The notes under the pieces were generated by a model. That model had not been told where the DNA came from. It saw only the letters and a list, made by a program, of their open reading frames with translations, and did no database searches. DNA of 64,000 nucleotides, taken from the IMG/VR virus record IMGVR_UViG_3300032038_000044, positions 1 to 64,000 of that record, one strand, 5' to 3'. Below are positions 1 to 6,096 of this stretch, in pieces (position 1 is the stretch's first letter; each line of letters begins with the position of its first letter). This stretch comes from a virus. Its lineage: Duplodnaviria > Caudoviricetes. The translations under genes and the position numbers were made by a program.

Positions 1-41
1 TTCTTGATTTTCTATCCAAAACCACCAAGGCAACAGAACAC

Positions 42-78
42 AAAAAAAGACCTATGAAACATTTAATTTCATAGGTCT
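42..78 (-). terminator. Intrinsic terminator ending the long non-coding transcript
   Basis: Perfect 12-bp hairpin AGACCTATGAAA/TTTCATAGGTCT followed on the minus strand by a T7 run. Confidence 0.85.
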
Positions 79-84
79 GAAAGA

Positions 85-995
85 AAGGTAAAAGCCCTGT
101 TTATTCTTTTACTACCCAACAGAGAGGGTACTGAATGACTTTCTTTATTTGTACCTTGAAAGTTAAAGGCTAAACCATCTAAGAGGAGTCGGACCTCTTC
201 GAGTTACCATAAAGATGGTTATGTAGGCTGAGATTTTTGACCTACATCCTTGACATTCCTTGTCGTTTGAAACAAGTACCACAGTGTTGTTACACTAGTC
301 AAGAGCGTCAATAGTTTTGCGAAAACTATCAAAATCTTACTTGGAGTATTATAACTTTCCGTTCAATATATCCTTCCTTGCGAGATACACAGCTTGCGGG
401 CTGTTAGGGTTACATCTACTTGTAATCATTTACGCTTCACCTTGCGAGTTCCACGCATCAACATATTTCAGTTGAATAAGACGCTTTTCTACTTCCAAGT
501 CCTACACACTTTTGCTTAAATCATCTGTATTTTGTTTATACATTTAATTATTCACTGGCAATTGAATGTGTAAAAAATTTGAAGGCTGAACGATGGGGCA
601 TAGGTTTGACCATCCCTACCTTTTGAGTAAGGCAACTAGTCACCACCATTCTGTACTCCCTTACTATCGTTCGTACTCTCTGTTCACCACCTAGTTTCCA
701 CTTTAAGATGATTTCCGTTGTCAATTAAGCATTTGTTCGGTAGAACTCACACCTAAGAGTAATTAGCAATCTACGCATTTCTGCGACTTACTTTTTCTAG
801 CACCACCTGTGATGATGCCCATCCAATCTGCTCTCTTATCAGTTGACCTTGAGAGGTAGGAAAGGATGTATGCTAATTAGTTTTCCATCGAGCTATCCGA
901 GGAGAACCACGGTCGCCGCACACTACTTTGCCTTTTCGTATGCTTTACCCTTATCACTAAGGCTATTTTTAAAGGACATGAAACCTGCCCTTAGA
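85..995 (-). ncRNA. Large structured ncRNA candidate 2 (~900 nt; ROOL/GOLLD-class-like)
   Basis: No credible ORF; many hairpins with GCAA loops on the minus strand; shares ACAGGTGGTGCT, CTGTGTAT and ACTCCAAGTA with the neighbouring RNA; ends at the terminator. Boundaries approximate. Confidence 0.55.
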
Positions 996-1005
996 CTTTC
1001 AACCG

Positions 1006-1613
1006 AAGTTGTAAGCCTTGATAAAATAAATATATACTCCTTCGAGTTACTTTTATTATCACTACCAAACATTATTACGCTAATAGGAAGATGAATGTGA
1101 GCCAAAAGGAGCTACCTTATGGCTTTTTCACCCTGGTGTTAGACACCCAAGCCTATGCGGGACTGATATACCCGCACCTTTCACAGTTACTTTCACTTGT
1201 TTTTCTTTAATAATAACCTAATTATTAATTCAAGAAATTGGGACTTGTCATTCTGCTACTTGGAGTTCCATAGTTATGTTATACACAGATTTCTCTGTTT
1301 CACGACAAACTAGATTATTGGTTTTTCCTAAAGTTGCACCCCAGCACCACCTGTAGGCTCTTTAGGAGAGGTATCTCTTTCGAGGTACTTTTTATTGTTC
1401 TAGCCATAACCATTCTGCGCTATGCCATGATAATAAAAGTGCTACATCTTAACACTTGGTGCCTAGCCTTGTTACTCTCAGTTTCCATTGAGTAAAAGCA
1501 ATTTTTTTGAAGTATCCTTCTAAAAACAACTTTATTATCTGATGTACCCTACCATAGTTGTTGGACTATGTTTATCAATAGGTTAGATATTTATTTTATC
1601 AAGGTTCACAACT
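1006..1613 (-). ncRNA. Large structured ncRNA candidate 1 (~600 nt; ROOL-like)
   Basis: Starts just after a consensus promoter; 5' and 3' ends form a 28-position helix (1006-1033 with 1586-1613, one G-U, one mismatch); internal GAAA/GGAA hairpins; UUCG hairpin at the 3' end; size and tRNA-island context fit ROOL. Confidence 0.65.
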
Positions 1614-1634
1614 TTCAATTTTTATTACATATTT

Positions 1635-1663
1635 ATTATAACAAAAATTTTTCTGAAAGTCAA
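1635..1663 (-). promoter_or_regulatory. Sigma70/SigA promoter driving the large ncRNA region
   Basis: TTGACT-N17-TATAAT with extended -10 TG. Confidence 0.85.
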
Positions 1664-1672
1664 ATGGGATAG

Positions 1673-1743
1673 TGGCGGGTGTGGGACTTGAACCCACGTC
1701 TACGGGGCATGAACCCGTCAAGGAACCACTCCTCCAACCCGCT
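1673..1743 (-). tRNA. tRNA-Met(CAU), initiator-like
   Basis: Cloverleaf; loop TT-CAT-GC; GGG/CCC anticodon stem; 1:72 mismatch. Confidence 0.85.
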
Positions 1744-1747
1744 ATAG

Positions 1748-1819
1748 TCACCTAAACCAGATTTGCACTGATGTCTGCGCCTTGAGAGGGCGCCATCCTA
1801 ACTACTAGACGATTAGGCG
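1748..1819 (-). tRNA. tRNA-Glu(CUC)
   Basis: Stem GCGCC/GGCGC, loop CT-CTC-AA; atypical T loop TGCAAAT. Confidence 0.8.
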
Positions 1820-1824
1820 ATTCA

Positions 1825-2003
1825 ATTTTTATTTTAGTTTTAACATCAGCAAGGAATTTCAACCCACGAAGTTTGCTCCTTTGTTTTTATAGGTTTATCA
1901 ATCAAACCTCAGAACCGAAAGCTGGAACTTACACAGCAACTTAACTGAAACGGATTTAGTTTTTTGAAGAGGAACTATTCTGTAAAACTCTTAATTACTT
2001 TAC
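1825..2003 (-). ncRNA. Unassigned structured small RNA (family A/B, copy B)
   Basis: Own promoter at 2010-2038; motifs AGTTCCTC, AAATCCG, GCTGTGT, TTCCA, ACAAAGGA in the same order as in 5790-6015. Confidence 0.5.
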
Positions 2004-2052
2004 ATTAATATTATAACAAAAATTTTTCTTAATTTCAAATTTCTGTTAAGAG

Positions 2053-2124
2053 TGACTTGACCGAGAATCGAACTCAGGTTTCCTCAGTGAGAGTGAGGCG
2101 TCTTGACCGCTTGACCACCAAGCC
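2053..2124 (-). tRNA. tRNA-Glu(CUC)
   Basis: Stem CCTCA/TGAGG, loop CT-CTC-AC; T loop TTCGATT. Confidence 0.9.
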
Positions 2125-2271
2125 ATGCTACCTTAACCTCGGTAGTAGAGGGGCATTGTTTTTCTTTGTTATGGGGGTGAAAAGTATAGCCTGACTGATA
2201 TCCCCTACCATTTTAGAATCATTAGCTTATATAGTTTTTTAACTTCTGCTATTTACTATATAAGTTATAAG

Positions 2272-2345
2272 TCGGCGAAGAGGGATTCGAACCCTCAGAA
2301 GCGGGTACCTAAAGCCCGTGCGTCTGCCAGTTGCGCCATTCACCG
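2272..2345 (-). tRNA. tRNA-Leu(UAG) with short variable loop
   Basis: Loop TT-TAG-GT; Leu-type D loop; only 5-nt variable region. Confidence 0.8.
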
Positions 2346-2582
2346 ATTCTGTAAAGACAAAAGATTTCATTCCTTTTCCCAAGTCCTGACCTACTTTTTT
2401 ATCTTGGCTTTTGTTGCGCATCTCAGGAATTTCACTATCTTTGTCCTTCAAAGACTTTTCTACAAAGCGGAAATCTTTTTGAAGCCTTTTCGCGATTACT
2501 TCAAAATTTAACCTTTATCTTTTGTTTTTTCTTTACATTAATATTATAACAAAAATTTTTTTTATTTTCAAATTTGTTTTAC

Positions 2583-2655
2583 TACTCCGCCAGGGAGTCG
2601 AACCCTGATTGATGGATTAGAAATCCATTGTTCTGTTCCATTAAACTAACGGAGT
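2583..2655 (-). tRNA. tRNA-Arg(UCU)
   Basis: Stem ATGGA/TCCAT, loop TT-TCT-AA. Confidence 0.9.
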
Positions 2656-2729
2656 ATATTTTTCTTTTTCTTTCTTTTGTTTATATATAAATTATAACAA
2701 AAATTTTTTAAAATTTCAATTTTTGTTAT

Positions 2730-3089
2730 TTACCACCATAAAGCTCCAAACCATTCTACAAAAAGTTTAAGCCCTTCTTTTTCTTTTAACATATCTTCTT
2801 CATATCTAGTTTTATCAAATTCTCCAGTTGGAAGAAAATATTTATTAGCTACTTCAACAGATTCGATATGTAATTCAAAAGCTTTAATCATCTTATCAAT
2901 GATTTCATCCCATTTTTCAGGAGTATTTGCGTCGCCATGTCCAGGGTATCCATCATTTACCTTTTTGAATAATTTAAGTCTTGGAATAGCGAATTCCGCA
3001 AAAGTACAATCTAAACTCCAAGTATCTTTAATATTCACATAACGACCATTCTTTTTAAGCCATTTCTTTCTTACTCTCTTGTTTGCCAT
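2730..3089 (-). CDS. Hypothetical phage protein (119 aa; start MANKRV)
   Basis: SD AAGGAG before ATG at 3089; the longer ORF-track start overlaps tRNA-Leu. Confidence 0.75.
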   Translation of the reverse strand: MANKRVRKKWLKKNGRYVNIKDTWSLDCTFAEFAIPRLKLFKKVNDGYPGHGDANTPEKWDEIIDKMIKAFELHIESVEVANKYFLPTGEFDKTRYEEDMLKEKEGLKLFVEWFGALWW

Positions 3090-3106
3090 ACCCTTTCTCC
3101 TTAAAG

Positions 3107-3188
3107 TACACCCAGTGGGAGTCGAACCCACAAGCATTACTGCACGGGAGCTTAAATCCCGCGTGTTTTCCAGTTTCACCATGGGTGC
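3107..3188 (-). tRNA. tRNA-Leu(UAA)
   Basis: Loop TT-TAA-GC; long variable arm. Confidence 0.9.
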
Positions 3189-3197
3189 ATATATTAA

Positions 3198-3268
3198 AGC
3201 GGCGGGTGAGAGTCGAACTCACGCTCACGGAGTTGCAGTCCGTTGCCTTACCACTTGGCTACCGCCGC
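3198..3268 (-). tRNA. tRNA-Cys(GCA)
   Basis: Stem ACGGA/TCCGT, loop CT-GCA-AC; U73. Confidence 0.92.
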
Positions 3269-3274
3269 ATTGAG

Positions 3275-3347
3275 CAGGCGATGTGGGACTCGAACCCACA
3301 ACCCTCGGAATCAGAATCCGATGCTCTACCAATTAAGCTAACCGCCA
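3275..3347 (-). tRNA. tRNA-Gln(CUG)
   Basis: Stem TCGGA/TCCGA, loop TT-CTG-AT. Confidence 0.88.
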
Positions 3348-3354
3348 ATAAAAA

Positions 3355-3426
3355 TACTCGCAGTAGGACTCGAACCTACATTAAAGGGTTCGTAGCCCTT
3401 CGTTCTATCCATTGAACTATACGAGC
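3355..3426 (-). tRNA. tRNA-Arg(ACG)
   Basis: Stem AAGGG/CCCTT, loop CT-ACG-AA. Confidence 0.92.
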
Positions 3427-3431
3427 ATAAG

Positions 3432-3513
3432 TAGGCGGGGTGAGACTCGAACTCACGAAGACCGAAGCCAGCGGGTTTACAGCCCGCCGCAATTGCCGCT
3501 ATGCGACCCACCT
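3432..3513 (-). tRNA. tRNA-Tyr(GUA)
   Basis: Loop CT-GTA-AA; long variable arm. Confidence 0.92.
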
Positions 3514-3522
3514 ATGACAGAG

Positions 3523-3594
3523 TGGAGCTGGAGGGAATCGAACCCTCATCACTTGAGTGCAGGTCAAGCATTCTCCCATTAAACCTACAGCCCC
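3523..3594 (-). tRNA. tRNA-Ala(UGC)
   Basis: Loop CC-TGC-AC; G3-U70 identity pair. Confidence 0.92.
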
Positions 3595-3659
3595 ATGGAT
3601 ATAAGGATTTACGCTTGTTAAACCACCTTATATCGTTATTAGCTATTGCCTAGCCAAAG

Positions 3660-3732
3660 CAGCTCCTACCGGACTTGAACCGTGTATCTCAGCCTTGAAA
3701 GGGCTACATCCTTACCTTTAGACGAAGAAGCC
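3660..3732 (-). tRNA. tRNA-Glu(UUC)
   Basis: Loop CT-TTC-AA; cloverleaf with slightly irregular T stem. Confidence 0.85.
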
Positions 3733-3817
3733 ATATAATGAGCTTTAGGTCGCTCAACCACGTATCCAGAGTTCTTTTACCGAACCGAGAGGTCTGTATT
3801 TGTTAATTGAACTCGCG

Positions 3818-3897
3818 CATCTTAGACAGGAATCGAACCTGCAACCTCCCAGATTATTAATCCTAGGGCGTTCTCCCATTCATTGAACTACTAAGAT
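3818..3897 (-). tRNA. Atypical tRNA with extended anticodon arm (AAU anticodon if loop is centred; Ile-like or pseudo)
   Basis: Perfect acceptor ATCTTAG/CTAAGAT, normal D and T arms; 21-nt anticodon arm instead of 17. Confidence 0.6.
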
Positions 3898-3900
3898 GAG

Positions 3901-3971
3901 AGCCCGTGATGGGAATCGAACCCACGTGTACAGCTTGGAAGGCTGTCATTCTACCATTAAACTACACGGAC
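3901..3971 (-). tRNA. tRNA-Gly(UCC)
   Basis: Stem ACAGC/GCTGT, loop CT-TCC-AA. Confidence 0.92.
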
Positions 3972-4121
3972 ATTTGCTATTTGTTCTAAGCATCAAAGAG
4001 CTATTCGAATATCGCCCCCATCGCTAACATGTATTAGCATGTATTTTTTCGAACTTTATCTCATACGCCGCCTCGATAATCCCCTCACATGCGCACAAGA
4101 GTGGCTAATAGCTTAGCCTAG

Positions 4122-4168
4122 AGCTGGAAGAAGGAGTCGAACCTTCAACTTCCCGCTTACAGGGCGGA
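4122..4168 (-). pseudogene. tRNA-Thr(UGU)-like 3' two-thirds without a recognisable 5' acceptor strand or D arm
   Basis: Anticodon arm TCCGC-CCTGTAA-GCGGG, T arm GAAGG-TTCGACT-CCTTC, 3' strand TTCCAGC; no complementary GCTGGAA at the expected position. Confidence 0.5.
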
Positions 4169-4312
4169 CGGGAATCAATCCTTCTTTTACTTGCGCTTCG
4201 CAAAGTGTTTTATTATGTATAAACTACGTCCGAACAGTAGGATGTCAGCCCAAGCAGTTTGTACTCCTTTTGTCCTGGTGGGTCAAACTTTCTTGTAAAA
4301 ATTCATAACCTC

Positions 4313-4384
4313 TGCCTCGCCTGGGAATCGAACCCAACTACCTCAGGCTTCAACCGAGTGTAGTCACCAGACTACTTGAGAGGC
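4313..4384 (-). tRNA. tRNA-Phe(GAA)
   Basis: Loop TT-GAA-GC; cloverleaf. Confidence 0.85.
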
Positions 4385-4452
4385 TGGATAAAGTCAACTT
4401 CTGCTTTATCCTTGCTAAATCGTTCTCTCATATTTTTTCTCCTTGTTGTTAG

Positions 4453-4525
4453 TGGGGTGGAGGAGAGTCGAACTCCCGACACACGGTTTATAAGACCGCT
4501 GCTCTAACCCCTGAGCTACCACCCT
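4453..4525 (-). tRNA. tRNA-Ile(UAU)
   Basis: Stem GCGGT/ACCGT, loop CT-TAT-AA. Confidence 0.88.
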
Positions 4526-4591
4526 AGTGTAAGTAATCTAAGAGTGATATGTGTATTCGTTTCATATGTTTATCTCCTTTTTGTTCATCAG

Positions 4592-4662
4592 CGGGGGCAG
4601 TAGGAATTGAACCTACGTAGCACGGTTAACAGCCGTGTGCCAAGCCACTTGGCGATACCTCC
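4592..4662 (-). tRNA. tRNA-Asn(GUU)
   Basis: Stem CACGG/CCGTG, loop CT-GTT-AA. Confidence 0.9.
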
Positions 4663-4665
4663 AAA

Positions 4666-5032
4666 TTAATTATCTAAATAATGCTCTTCTGCATGACAAT
4701 TAGCACATAACAAATCGCATTTCATAACTTCATTTAAGTATTCCTGCCACGAACGAGTATTTCCGCTTTGAGAAAGACCAAAACTTTTTTCTTCTGGATT
4801 TCTATGATGGAATTGTAAAGCTTCGATACATTTATTATAGCCACATTTCTCACATTTTCCACCTCTTAATTCTATGGCACGTTTTTTCATAGCTCTTCTT
4901 AAAACTATTATTGAAGCGCTTCTTTCTTGCGAGGTAATATAAGAAGGACTACATTCATAACAATATTTTCTTGAATATCCATAGCTTTTTATTTCAAAAG
5001 GCTTATTACAGATTTCGCAATTTTTTTGTCAT
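4666..5032 (-). CDS. HNH endonuclease with N-terminal CxxC/CxxC zinc finger; start is out of frame at an A7 run (5021-5027)
   Basis: CEKCG...LQFHH...LLCANCHAEEH HNH motif; frame stays open upstream through CEIC...CYEC, but the SD/ATG at 5032 is offset by one base. Confidence 0.8.
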
Positions 5033-5107
5033 TATTTATCTCTTTTCTTTATGTATTTATTATATCAAAAATTTTTTAAATTTTCAATTAATAATAGTGG
5101 CTAACTT

Positions 5108-5215
5108 GAGTATAGCAAATCTACATTCAGGGCGTGCGCTGACAAGTCTAGCCTTGACTCAGCTTCCATTTCCTTGCGGGACCGCTCTGGTCGGTGTGAC
5201 CAACTACTTATACTC
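5108..5215 (-). ncRNA. Unassigned ~105-nt multi-stem RNA
   Basis: Closed by GAGTATA/TATACTC; internal TGGTC/GACCA, CC-GCAA-GG and GCTGA-GTC/GAC-TCAGC stems. Confidence 0.45.
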
Positions 5216-5225
5216 TTTTATTTAG

Positions 5226-5786
5226 TCCCCGGTATGGGAATCGAACCCATCTGATTTCTCGCGTGACTTAAATCATAAATTCAGTAAAACCTTTTCAGCT
5301 AAAAAATCACTTGCTTTTCTTTGATTGCTATTTCTAACTTCTTTTAGCCAAAATTTTGTTTCTTGTGTATCAAATACTGGAAAGATATAATACTGACCAT
5401 TATACTCTGTCATAAAATAATCAGTATCTTCTTTTGTATATTTTTGATGCTCGATACGCTGAGATTTTTCAACGTTTCTAACATCATACTTAGTTCTTAC
5501 TACAAAACTTTCACCCCCGTTTTGAGGGGTAGCGTGTTTTACTTGAATACGAGTAAACTTTCCATCCTTCTCAATAACTAAGTCATACTTTTGATAATTT
5601 CCGATTGGTAATAATACATTAAAACCATTTTCAATTAAATATAGTTGACATTTATATTCAGTTATTAATCCGACTTGAGAAGGGTTTAATATTACATCTG
5701 TCATATAAACTCCTTTCTCTGAAAAGATTTTACTACTTACTCTTCAAGACAGGCGAGCGTCCAACGCCATGTAGACCTACCGGAGA
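5226..5786 (-). tRNA. Split tRNA-Asp(GUC): 5' exon ~5748-5786, 3' exon ~5226-5264, 483-nt insert in the anticodon
   Basis: Joined halves give acceptor CTCCGGT/ACCGGGG, anticodon stem CTCGC/GCGAG and the canonical Asp loop CT-GTC-AC; GTC is duplicated at the insert ends. Confidence 0.88.
5273..5704 (-). CDS. PD-(D/E)XK endonuclease (group I intron-associated/I-Ssp6803I-like family) inside tRNA-Asp
   Basis: YDLVIE...RIQVK catalytic pattern; own SD GAAAGGAG. Confidence 0.85.
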   Translation of the reverse strand: MTDVILNPSQVGLITEYKCQLYLIENGFNVLLPIGNYQKYDLVIEKDGKFTRIQVKHATPQNGGESFVVRTKYDVRNVEKSQRIEHQKYTKEDTDYFMTEYNGQYYIFPVFDTQETKFWLKEVRNSNQRKASDFLAEKVLLNL

Positions 5787-5789
5787 TAT

Positions 5790-6015
5790 TAATGGGTAGA
5801 GGTGCACTCTCTACCGTAGTTCCTTTGTCCTCACCTGCCTCTTTCATCAGATGGAAACACACAGCGGATTTTTTATCCTTCATTTATCCTATGTACGATT
5901 CTCAGCATTCTTTGGTCTCTGAGGAACTACACTCTAAAGCCTATTGCCTTAAAGCCTTCATGAAGTAGTCAACTTCATTCCTTATACGTGCGATTGGTTG
6001 ACAAGACCTCGCACA
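5790..6015 (-). ncRNA. Unassigned structured small RNA (family A/B, copy A)
   Basis: Long-range helix GTAGTTCCT/AGGAACTAC, hairpin GGTAGAG/CTCTACC, motifs shared with 1825-2003. Confidence 0.55.
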
Positions 6016-6020
6016 TACAG

Positions 6021-6091
6021 AGCTTCCAGACGGACTCGAACCGCCATACCTTGATTACAGGTCAAGAGTACTACCATTGTACGATGGAAGC
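6021..6091 (-). tRNA. tRNA-Thr(UGU)
   Basis: Stem CTTGA/TCAAG, loop CC-TGT-AA. Confidence 0.92.
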
Positions 6092-6096
6092 ATAAG

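Follow-up and report, generated by a model that had tools for sequence, protein, structure and literature searches.

A promoter-bearing ROOL RNA followed directly by a GOLLD RNA behind a phage tRNA array

Introduction

Which RNA lies beyond the last gene of a phage tRNA array, how is it made, and what might it do there? These questions are raised by a 64,000-nt stretch of phage DNA (the window; positions 1 to 64,000 of IMG/VR record IMGVR_UViG_3300032038_000044), near one end of which the original prediction placed an ornate, promoter-driven, ROOL-like RNA. To our knowledge, natural nanocages made of RNA alone are formed by two families, ROOL and GOLLD, and the genomic niche that they share has prompted the idea that they do similar jobs. 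ROOL (RF03087) was described by Weinberg et al. in 2017 (PMC5737381), and GOLLD (RF02032) reportedly by Weinberg et al. in 2009.

ROOL and GOLLD each form closed homo-oligomers, of D4 and D7 symmetry, with the env-38 GOLLD building a 14-mer cage (PMC12286853). For ROOL, cages have been demonstrated by cryo-electron microscopy and mass photometry for three RNAs, those of env-120, E. faecalis and L. salivarius, and vary between hexamer and octamer (PMC12286853; PMC12990946). In the solved ROOLs the closing helix, P1, lies within the ordered structure, and in the env-120 ROOL the linker is disordered and directed toward the cage interior (PMC12286853).

Results

The region contains a full-length member of the ROOL family

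A covariance-model search of the window with the Rfam ROOL model (RF03087) gave a minus-strand match at 1017-1606, which scored 261.5 bits (E = 1.4e-58; the gathering score is 99.1) and aligned model positions 1-574 of 574, with no truncation. This full-length match bears out the ROOL-like identity put forward in the original prediction, which had proposed a scan with Rfam models as its check, and covariation among homologues is present as well. Across six subclade members, RNAalifold found compensatory changes in 65 of the 117 predicted pairs. The minimum-free-energy (MFE) fold of 1001-1628 reaches -176.1 kcal/mol, compared with -134.3 +/- 5.5 kcal/mol for shuffled sequences (z = -7.58). The RNA at 1006-1614 on the minus strand is a genuine and ordinary member of the ROOL family, an identity that confirms rather than discovers. 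The elements of the locus are as follows.

1672-1743, minus strand: tRNA-Met(CAT), the final tRNA of the array, next to the ROOL promoter (ARAGORN)
1635-1663, minus strand: sigma-A-type promoter of the putative ROOL-GOLLD unit, TTGACT-17 nt-TG-TATAAT, 11/12 matches, extended -10
1587-1620, minus strand: extended P1, 5' strand (L240 comparison, diagonal scan, MFE fold; covariation of alignment columns 3-32 with 670-699)
1006-1614, minus strand: ROOL RNA including the full closing helix P1 (RF03087 match, fold z, covariation)
1200-1270, minus strand: variable A/U-rich ROOL linker, the unstructured loop region of the model and the least conserved part of ROOL
1001-1033, minus strand: extended P1, 3' strand (L240 comparison, diagonal scan, RNAalifold, MFE fold)
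991-1000, minus strand: spacer from the base of ROOL P1 to the first GOLLD hairpin, without a terminator
225-990, minus strand: GOLLD RNA, with its 5' domain at ~990-652 and its conserved 3' domain at 651-225 (RF02032 and nhmmer)
48-78, minus strand: intrinsic terminator closing the unit, a 13-bp stem followed by a T-run

With its long P1, the RNA measures 609 nt, against a family mean of 581. Its score is 55-75 bits lower than the 318-335 bits of its relatives, and two small model hairpins are weakly formed or mismatched in the covariance-model alignment. That alignment is made without pseudoknots, of which the published ROOL consensus has three. The virus record to which the window belongs, 89,220 nt long and rated 61% complete by CheckV, contains this one ROOL. 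Protein coding was rejected, the open reading frames (ORFs) overlapping the ROOL region being random and of 60 aa or fewer. The OLE covariance model gave no match at E <= 1 in window positions 1-2700, and BLASTN of the same segment against 50,697 phage records returned a single 76-nt match, which indicates that the locus has no close cultured relative.

Several details of the original prediction required revision. It had drawn the RNA over 1006-1663; the RNA proper occupies 1006-1614, and 1635-1663 is promoter. Two of its nested helices, TTACTCA/TGAG.GTAA and TGCGGG/CCCGCA, fit the family model, but a third was wrongly paired. In the family model, the RNAalifold consensus and the MFE fold alike, the partner of ACTTTTATT is GATAATAAAAGT near 1057-1046 rather than the neighbouring AATAAAAAGT, so that in this same helix ACUUUUAUU pairs with GAUAAUAAAAGU near 1057-1046, not with the adjacent AAUAAAAAGU. 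Among the motifs that it likened to ROOL sequences, CAGGUGGUGCU and CUGUGUAU do sit at conserved ROOL positions (the GUGG loop and GUAUAAC), whereas CAAGUCCC is no family motif: it lies in the variable linker, and the conserved ROOL block is CAAGUAGC.

Promoter, closing helix and tRNA array

The consensus promoter expected at 1635-1663 is indeed near-consensus, with 11 of 12 matches and a TG extension. It is the last of six near-identical promoters that run across the tRNA array on the minus strand (7049, 5087, 2719, 2571, 2038 and 1663), as located by a simple and crude regular-expression scan. From its position, transcription would start at ~1629-1627, 7-9 nt before the P1 helix. The terminal helix was recovered where it had been predicted, with 1614-1587 facing 1033-1006 over 28 positions that comprise 27 pairs, one of them G.U, and one A.C mismatch; the MFE fold lengthens it to 32 pairs (1620-1587 with 1033-1001). 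P1 lengths among ROOLs were compared by an ungapped diagonal scan. RNAduplex on 200-nt flanks was discarded for this purpose, as it returned long A/U duplexes without meaning.

ARAGORN places 24 tRNA genes at 1672-7729, all on the same strand as ROOL, and the terminase of the phage has its relatives among large phages that infect Firmicutes. The setting foreseen for the RNA, beside a tRNA cluster in a Firmicute phage, agrees with both the 24 same-strand tRNAs and the terminase, which is closest to Firmicutes-host phages. Also within the array are two ORFs for PD-(D/E)XK endonucleases (PF11645; 5273-5704 and 6149-6910, minus strand), and a T4 Rnl1-type RNA ligase (PF09511) is encoded near it (13790-14869, minus strand).

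A GOLLD RNA follows ROOL

The RNA directly 3' of ROOL is GOLLD, an identification that goes beyond the first reading of the ROOL locus. The Rfam GOLLD model, which spans the conserved 3' domain only, matched 651-225 over model positions 1-416 of 416 with 108.5 bits (E = 5.6e-29), below its gathering score of 150. With 1005-1 as query, nhmmer matched ~80 IMG/VR loci, from a target set fetched by GOLLD motif, over query positions ~14-786 and with E-values down to 7e-49. Homology over ~775 nt points to a complete GOLLD of ~766 nt, starting near 990 and ~10-15 nt past the ROOL P1. The locus thus has the GOLLD architecture, namely a conserved 3' domain, a variable 5' domain, this length and a position next to tRNAs. 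Most of 31 near-full-length GOLLD relatives follow tRNA-Met(CAT) or tRNA-Asn, with a gap of ~17-20 nt in the junctions inspected, and the env-38 GOLLD likewise starts right after tRNA-Met (PMC12286853). In the window, a promoter-plus-ROOL module of ~666 nt fills exactly that tRNA-GOLLD junction.

When seven of the nhmmer GOLLD relatives were scanned with RF02032, four scored 76-92 bits and three had no match at E <= 1e-5. A sub-threshold GOLLD clade, comprising L047, L057, L068, L078 and ~75 further loci, belongs to uncultured phages of 80-190 kb and scores 76-108 bits against the required 150; threshold-based annotation would overlook it. Loci L065, L007 and L018 have no RF02032 match at E <= 1e-5, yet align by nhmmer over ~770 nt.

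Since ROOL and GOLLD lie on the same strand and no terminator precedes 78-48, they are most likely co-transcribed as one RNA of ~1.58 kb, from ~1628 to ~48, at the end of the 24-tRNA array. The site at 78-48 is the sole terminator-like site downstream of the ROOL promoter on the minus strand, and from ROOL to this terminator there is a single promoter-like site, a weak one (574-547, 10/12) inside GOLLD. Because the array has no internal terminators, read-through into the unit from upstream array promoters may also occur.

The two RNAs have short motifs in common, which we rejected as a sign of relationship. The 12-mer ACAGGTGGTGCT occurs in ROOL (1343-1354) and in the GOLLD 5' domain (799-810), where it forms one strand of a stem specific to the lineage; neither L240, the contig described below, nor any of 30 GOLLD relatives has it. 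Its sharing is most likely due to chance, and the other two motifs in common are so short that chance would be expected to produce them.

ROOL is under the strongest constraint at the locus

The order tRNA-Glu, tRNA-Met, promoter, ROOL, GOLLD recurs in L240, a metagenome contig of 1,284 nt with 86% identity to window positions 605-1834. Identities between the window and L240 differ by element.

tRNAs: 82-86%
Promoter plus leader (1614-1671): 98.3%
ROOL overall: 95.4%
ROOL 3' third: 98.5%
ROOL linker (1270-1200): 84.5%, against 96-98.5% for the rest of ROOL
GOLLD 5' domain: 74.9%

All substitutions in ROOL helices convert A-U to G.U and are compatible with pairing, and the remaining ROOL changes are limited to the linker and loops. 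Together with the contrast in identity, these changes point to ROOL as the most constrained element of the locus. The ROOL-GOLLD spacer of L240 (~385-412) contains an extra 28-nt hairpin, GAUUUAUAGC-UUCG-GUUAUAAAUC. It lacks a U-tract and is therefore not a terminator, and its presence indicates that the spacer tolerates insertion.

Further upstream, the array promoters at 2038-2010 and 2571-2543 are each followed by ~190 nt free of ORFs (1820-2003 and 2346-2536, minus strand) before the next tRNA. These segments could be small unannotated RNAs. In L240, the -10 box of the promoter lies only ~30 nt before tRNA-Glu, which makes the first segment an indel.

The window ROOL belongs to a subclade with a long P1

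The nearest relatives of the window ROOL are L125 (from phage G006), L141 (from phage G007), L204 and L119. G007 is complete at 115,863 nt, and L204 is a 31.6-kb fragment, 25% complete; subclade members with size information come from phages of ~115-145 kb, against the usual 40-75 kb. P1 measures 23-34 bp in the window, L125, L204 and L119 and ~22 bp in L141; in 94 further ROOLs from IMG/VR the median is 14 bp (range 11-19). The P1 extension covaries, as in GUGAACC/GGCUUAC, GCACC/GGUGC and GUUCU/GGAAC. A promoter-like site lies at most 120 nt upstream in three of the four long-P1 ROOLs (window, G006 and L204), and in L141, against none of the 94 others. Conversely, a tRNA abuts within 10 nt on at least one side in 51 of the 94 typical ROOLs and in none of the long-P1 group, a contrast that involves four long-P1 sequences (Fisher p = 0.049). 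A search with a subclade pattern retrieved only L125 and L141 from IMG/VR, one contig (L240) from the metagenome collection, and none from the genome collection.

Flanking tRNAs would allow RNase P and RNase Z to free typical ROOLs. The pattern is coherent, if drawn from a small sample: typical ROOLs appear to be punctuated by tRNAs, and long-P1 ROOLs to be free-standing units. A long P1 and a private promoter mark a recognisable ROOL subclade and suggest a processing route independent of flanking tRNAs.

Other features accompany these RNAs. Some 14 nt past the L141 ROOL, at 3500-3575, is a sequence that resembles a tRNA, uncalled by ARAGORN; it has an encoded CCA end, and one of its loops looks like a CAU anticodon loop. 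G006 (95354-95443) and L204 (7884-7958) each carry a tRNA with a CUA anticodon, an amber suppressor that ARAGORN labels Pyl; no CUA suppressor occurs among the window's 24 tRNAs. Phass-1, a related phage, has been assigned to a 'code 15' clade. Matches to group I introns lie near the tRNA and ornate-RNA regions of L141 (1320-1515, 59.5 bits, gathering score 50) and L078 (3533-3878, 37 bits, below that score).

ROOL and GOLLD rarely occur together

Whole-record covariance-model searches found ROOL in none of 55 GOLLD-bearing viral records, at least 23 of which are 90% or more complete, and GOLLD in one of 55 ROOL-bearing records, in a survey that is small at ~55 viral records each way. Profile-HMM scans of 112 GOLLD loci and 117 ROOL loci had the same outcome. 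Complete ROOL-bearing records are ~42-75 kb in length, and complete GOLLD-bearing records ~80-412 kb. A pattern spanning the ROOL-GOLLD junction retrieved nothing else in IMG/VR, and both RNAs are absent from five named terminase relatives, Enterococcus phages H1 and EF1, Phass-1, Geobacillus E3 and Lactococcus PMBT69. A genome with both ROOL and GOLLD finds no mention in PMC5737381, PMC12286853 or PMC12990946; other literature may contain one.

The exception is G006, a complete phage of 139,671 nt with terminal repeats. In its 30-tRNA array GOLLD (149.1 bits) comes first and ROOL (318.6 bits) second, with three tRNAs between them, which reverses the order seen in the window; each of the two RNAs has a separate promoter. 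G006 has 20 of 84 ORFs in common with the window's phage, at 25-51% amino-acid identity. The ROOLs of the two phages are each other's nearest relatives; the G006 GOLLD has no detectable nhmmer similarity to that of the window. With the GOLLDs dissimilar and the gene order different, inheritance of the pair from a common ancestor finds no support, and with few ORFs in common the two pairings were not simply inherited together. At 96931-97215 (minus strand), between the last tRNA and the ROOL promoter, G006 also has an ORF of ~45 codons with its own ribosome-binding-like site, which has no counterpart in the window.

Discussion

We consider it very probable that the locus encodes a ROOL-family RNA with its own promoter, which forms one unit with GOLLD and acts as a cage RNA clamped by P1. 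Judged from the anatomy of the locus, host sigma-A RNA polymerase would start at ~1628, only 7-9 nt before P1, read through ROOL, the ~10-15-nt spacer and a full-length GOLLD, and stop at 78-48. One precursor running from a single start to a terminator implies that ROOL and GOLLD would be made 1:1. By homology with the solved ROOLs, the ROOL monomer would fold flat with P1 clamping both of its ends; six or eight copies would then assemble, free of protein, into a hollow homo-oligomeric cage, and the linker at 1270-1200 would face inward. On this analogy we infer that the window ROOL forms a cage. The apical loop at 1114-1110, UAGCU, includes the self-complementary AGCU, which makes it a candidate for the symmetric L18 kissing loop (PMC12286853).

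How the two RNAs might be separated turns on P1. For most ROOLs, excision would fall to the enzymes that process the abutting tRNAs; the window ROOL has no abutting tRNA, and its 28-32-bp helix might combine the roles of a folding clamp and an RNase III-type processing stem, by which ROOL would be separated from GOLLD. Near-perfect duplexes of this length are textbook targets of RNase III, as in the leader-trailer stems of bacterial rRNA. That P1 replaces tRNA punctuation in this way is our working hypothesis, to which we give a little less than an even chance. The original prediction had named an RNase III stem as another possible reading of the helix, one that is consistent with the RNA being a ROOL. 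Alternatively, P1 could be a folding clamp only, insulating ROOL within a long polycistronic transcript, with release by other nucleases or through the native 5' end and a single cut in the spacer. A predicted start 7-9 nt before the helix would make a 5' cut unnecessary, and P1 is ordered in the solved ROOLs (PMC12286853); against this stand the suitability of so long and near-perfect a duplex for RNase III and the coincidence of P1 lengthening with the loss of abutting tRNAs. A clamp without a processing role is a serious possibility, if somewhat short of probable.

The closeness of ROOL and GOLLD also admits the reading that they are never separated, and instead make one covalent RNA of ~1.4-1.5 kb or co-assemble into a composite 'double-cage' RNA. 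The ~10-15 nt between P1 and the first GOLLD hairpin, which include neither a terminator nor a strong promoter, would suit such a fusion, as would the adjacency kept in L240 and the ability of GOLLD linkers to bear covalently attached tRNAs (PMC12286853). Yet G006 has the reverse order, three tRNAs between the two RNAs and a promoter for each, the L240 spacer accommodates a 28-nt hairpin, the 12-nt motif common to both RNAs is unconserved, and each family alone forms closed homo-oligomers, D4 and D7 (PMC12286853). We regard the composite as improbable. Still harder to sustain is the view that the window ROOL is a decaying, non-functional relic brought into the tRNA array by recombination. Its Rfam score, 55-75 bits under those of its relatives, and its two mismatched model hairpins could be signs of decay, and the absence of ROOL from 55 of 55 other GOLLD-bearing viral records implies that it is dispensable for such phages. 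But ROOL is the segment best conserved against L240 (95.4%, with flanks at 75-86%), its changes fall only in the linker, loops or G.U-compatible positions, its promoter is conserved, and 574 of 574 model positions are matched; a relic is thus very improbable.

The survey indicates that ROOL and GOLLD are almost never found in one phage and are split by phage size, at ~40-75 kb and 80-410 kb, respectively. Near mutual exclusion and the size split fit a functional equivalence of the two cages. Two exceptions to the exclusion, independent of each other, are the window lineage and one complete phage of 140 kb. It is conceivable, though unlikely, that the long-P1, promoter-bearing ROOL is an autonomous cassette that moved into the arrays of large GOLLD-type phages, where 1:1 cages would be complementary or interacting, so that an equivalence reflected in exclusion elsewhere would be broken here. 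What the cage does for the phage is a guess: given the array-end location and the phage's Rnl1-type RNA ligase, it might serve the tRNA or translation economy through storage, shielding or as a decoy.

A single promoter-to-terminator unit offers a natural construct with which to study whether one cage can stand in for the other, whether the two interact, and by what cuts a common precursor releases them. The unit itself, the near exclusion with its size partition, and the long-P1 subclade with its own promoter extend what is described in PMC5737381, PMC12286853 and PMC12990946. These leads are modest but usable, and they leave the nature of ROOL unchanged.

Among known systems, the window RNA is closest to its own family, with which it has in common the blocks GGAUAC, GUGG, CCAAUAA, GUAUAAC and CAAGUAGC, the size class, covarying helices, an internal linker of variable sequence and a place next to tRNA genes in a phage. 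It differs in its P1, which at 28-32 bp is about double the median of 14, in having its own promoter rather than directly abutting tRNAs, in a phage of ~145 kb (estimated from 89 kb at 61% completeness) against 40-75 kb, and in the GOLLD RNA immediately downstream. GOLLD is found in the same niche and likewise builds cages from RNA alone, but the two families are unrelated in fold and sequence. OLE resembles ROOL as a large, ornate, oligomerising bacterial RNA, but is a protein-associated dimer of extremophilic Firmicutes and no phage cage RNA. Leader-trailer stems of rRNA resemble P1 as long, near-perfect duplexes that flank a large RNA in a polycistronic transcript with tRNAs; unlike them, part of the helix here is ROOL's own P1, which is probably kept in the mature RNA.
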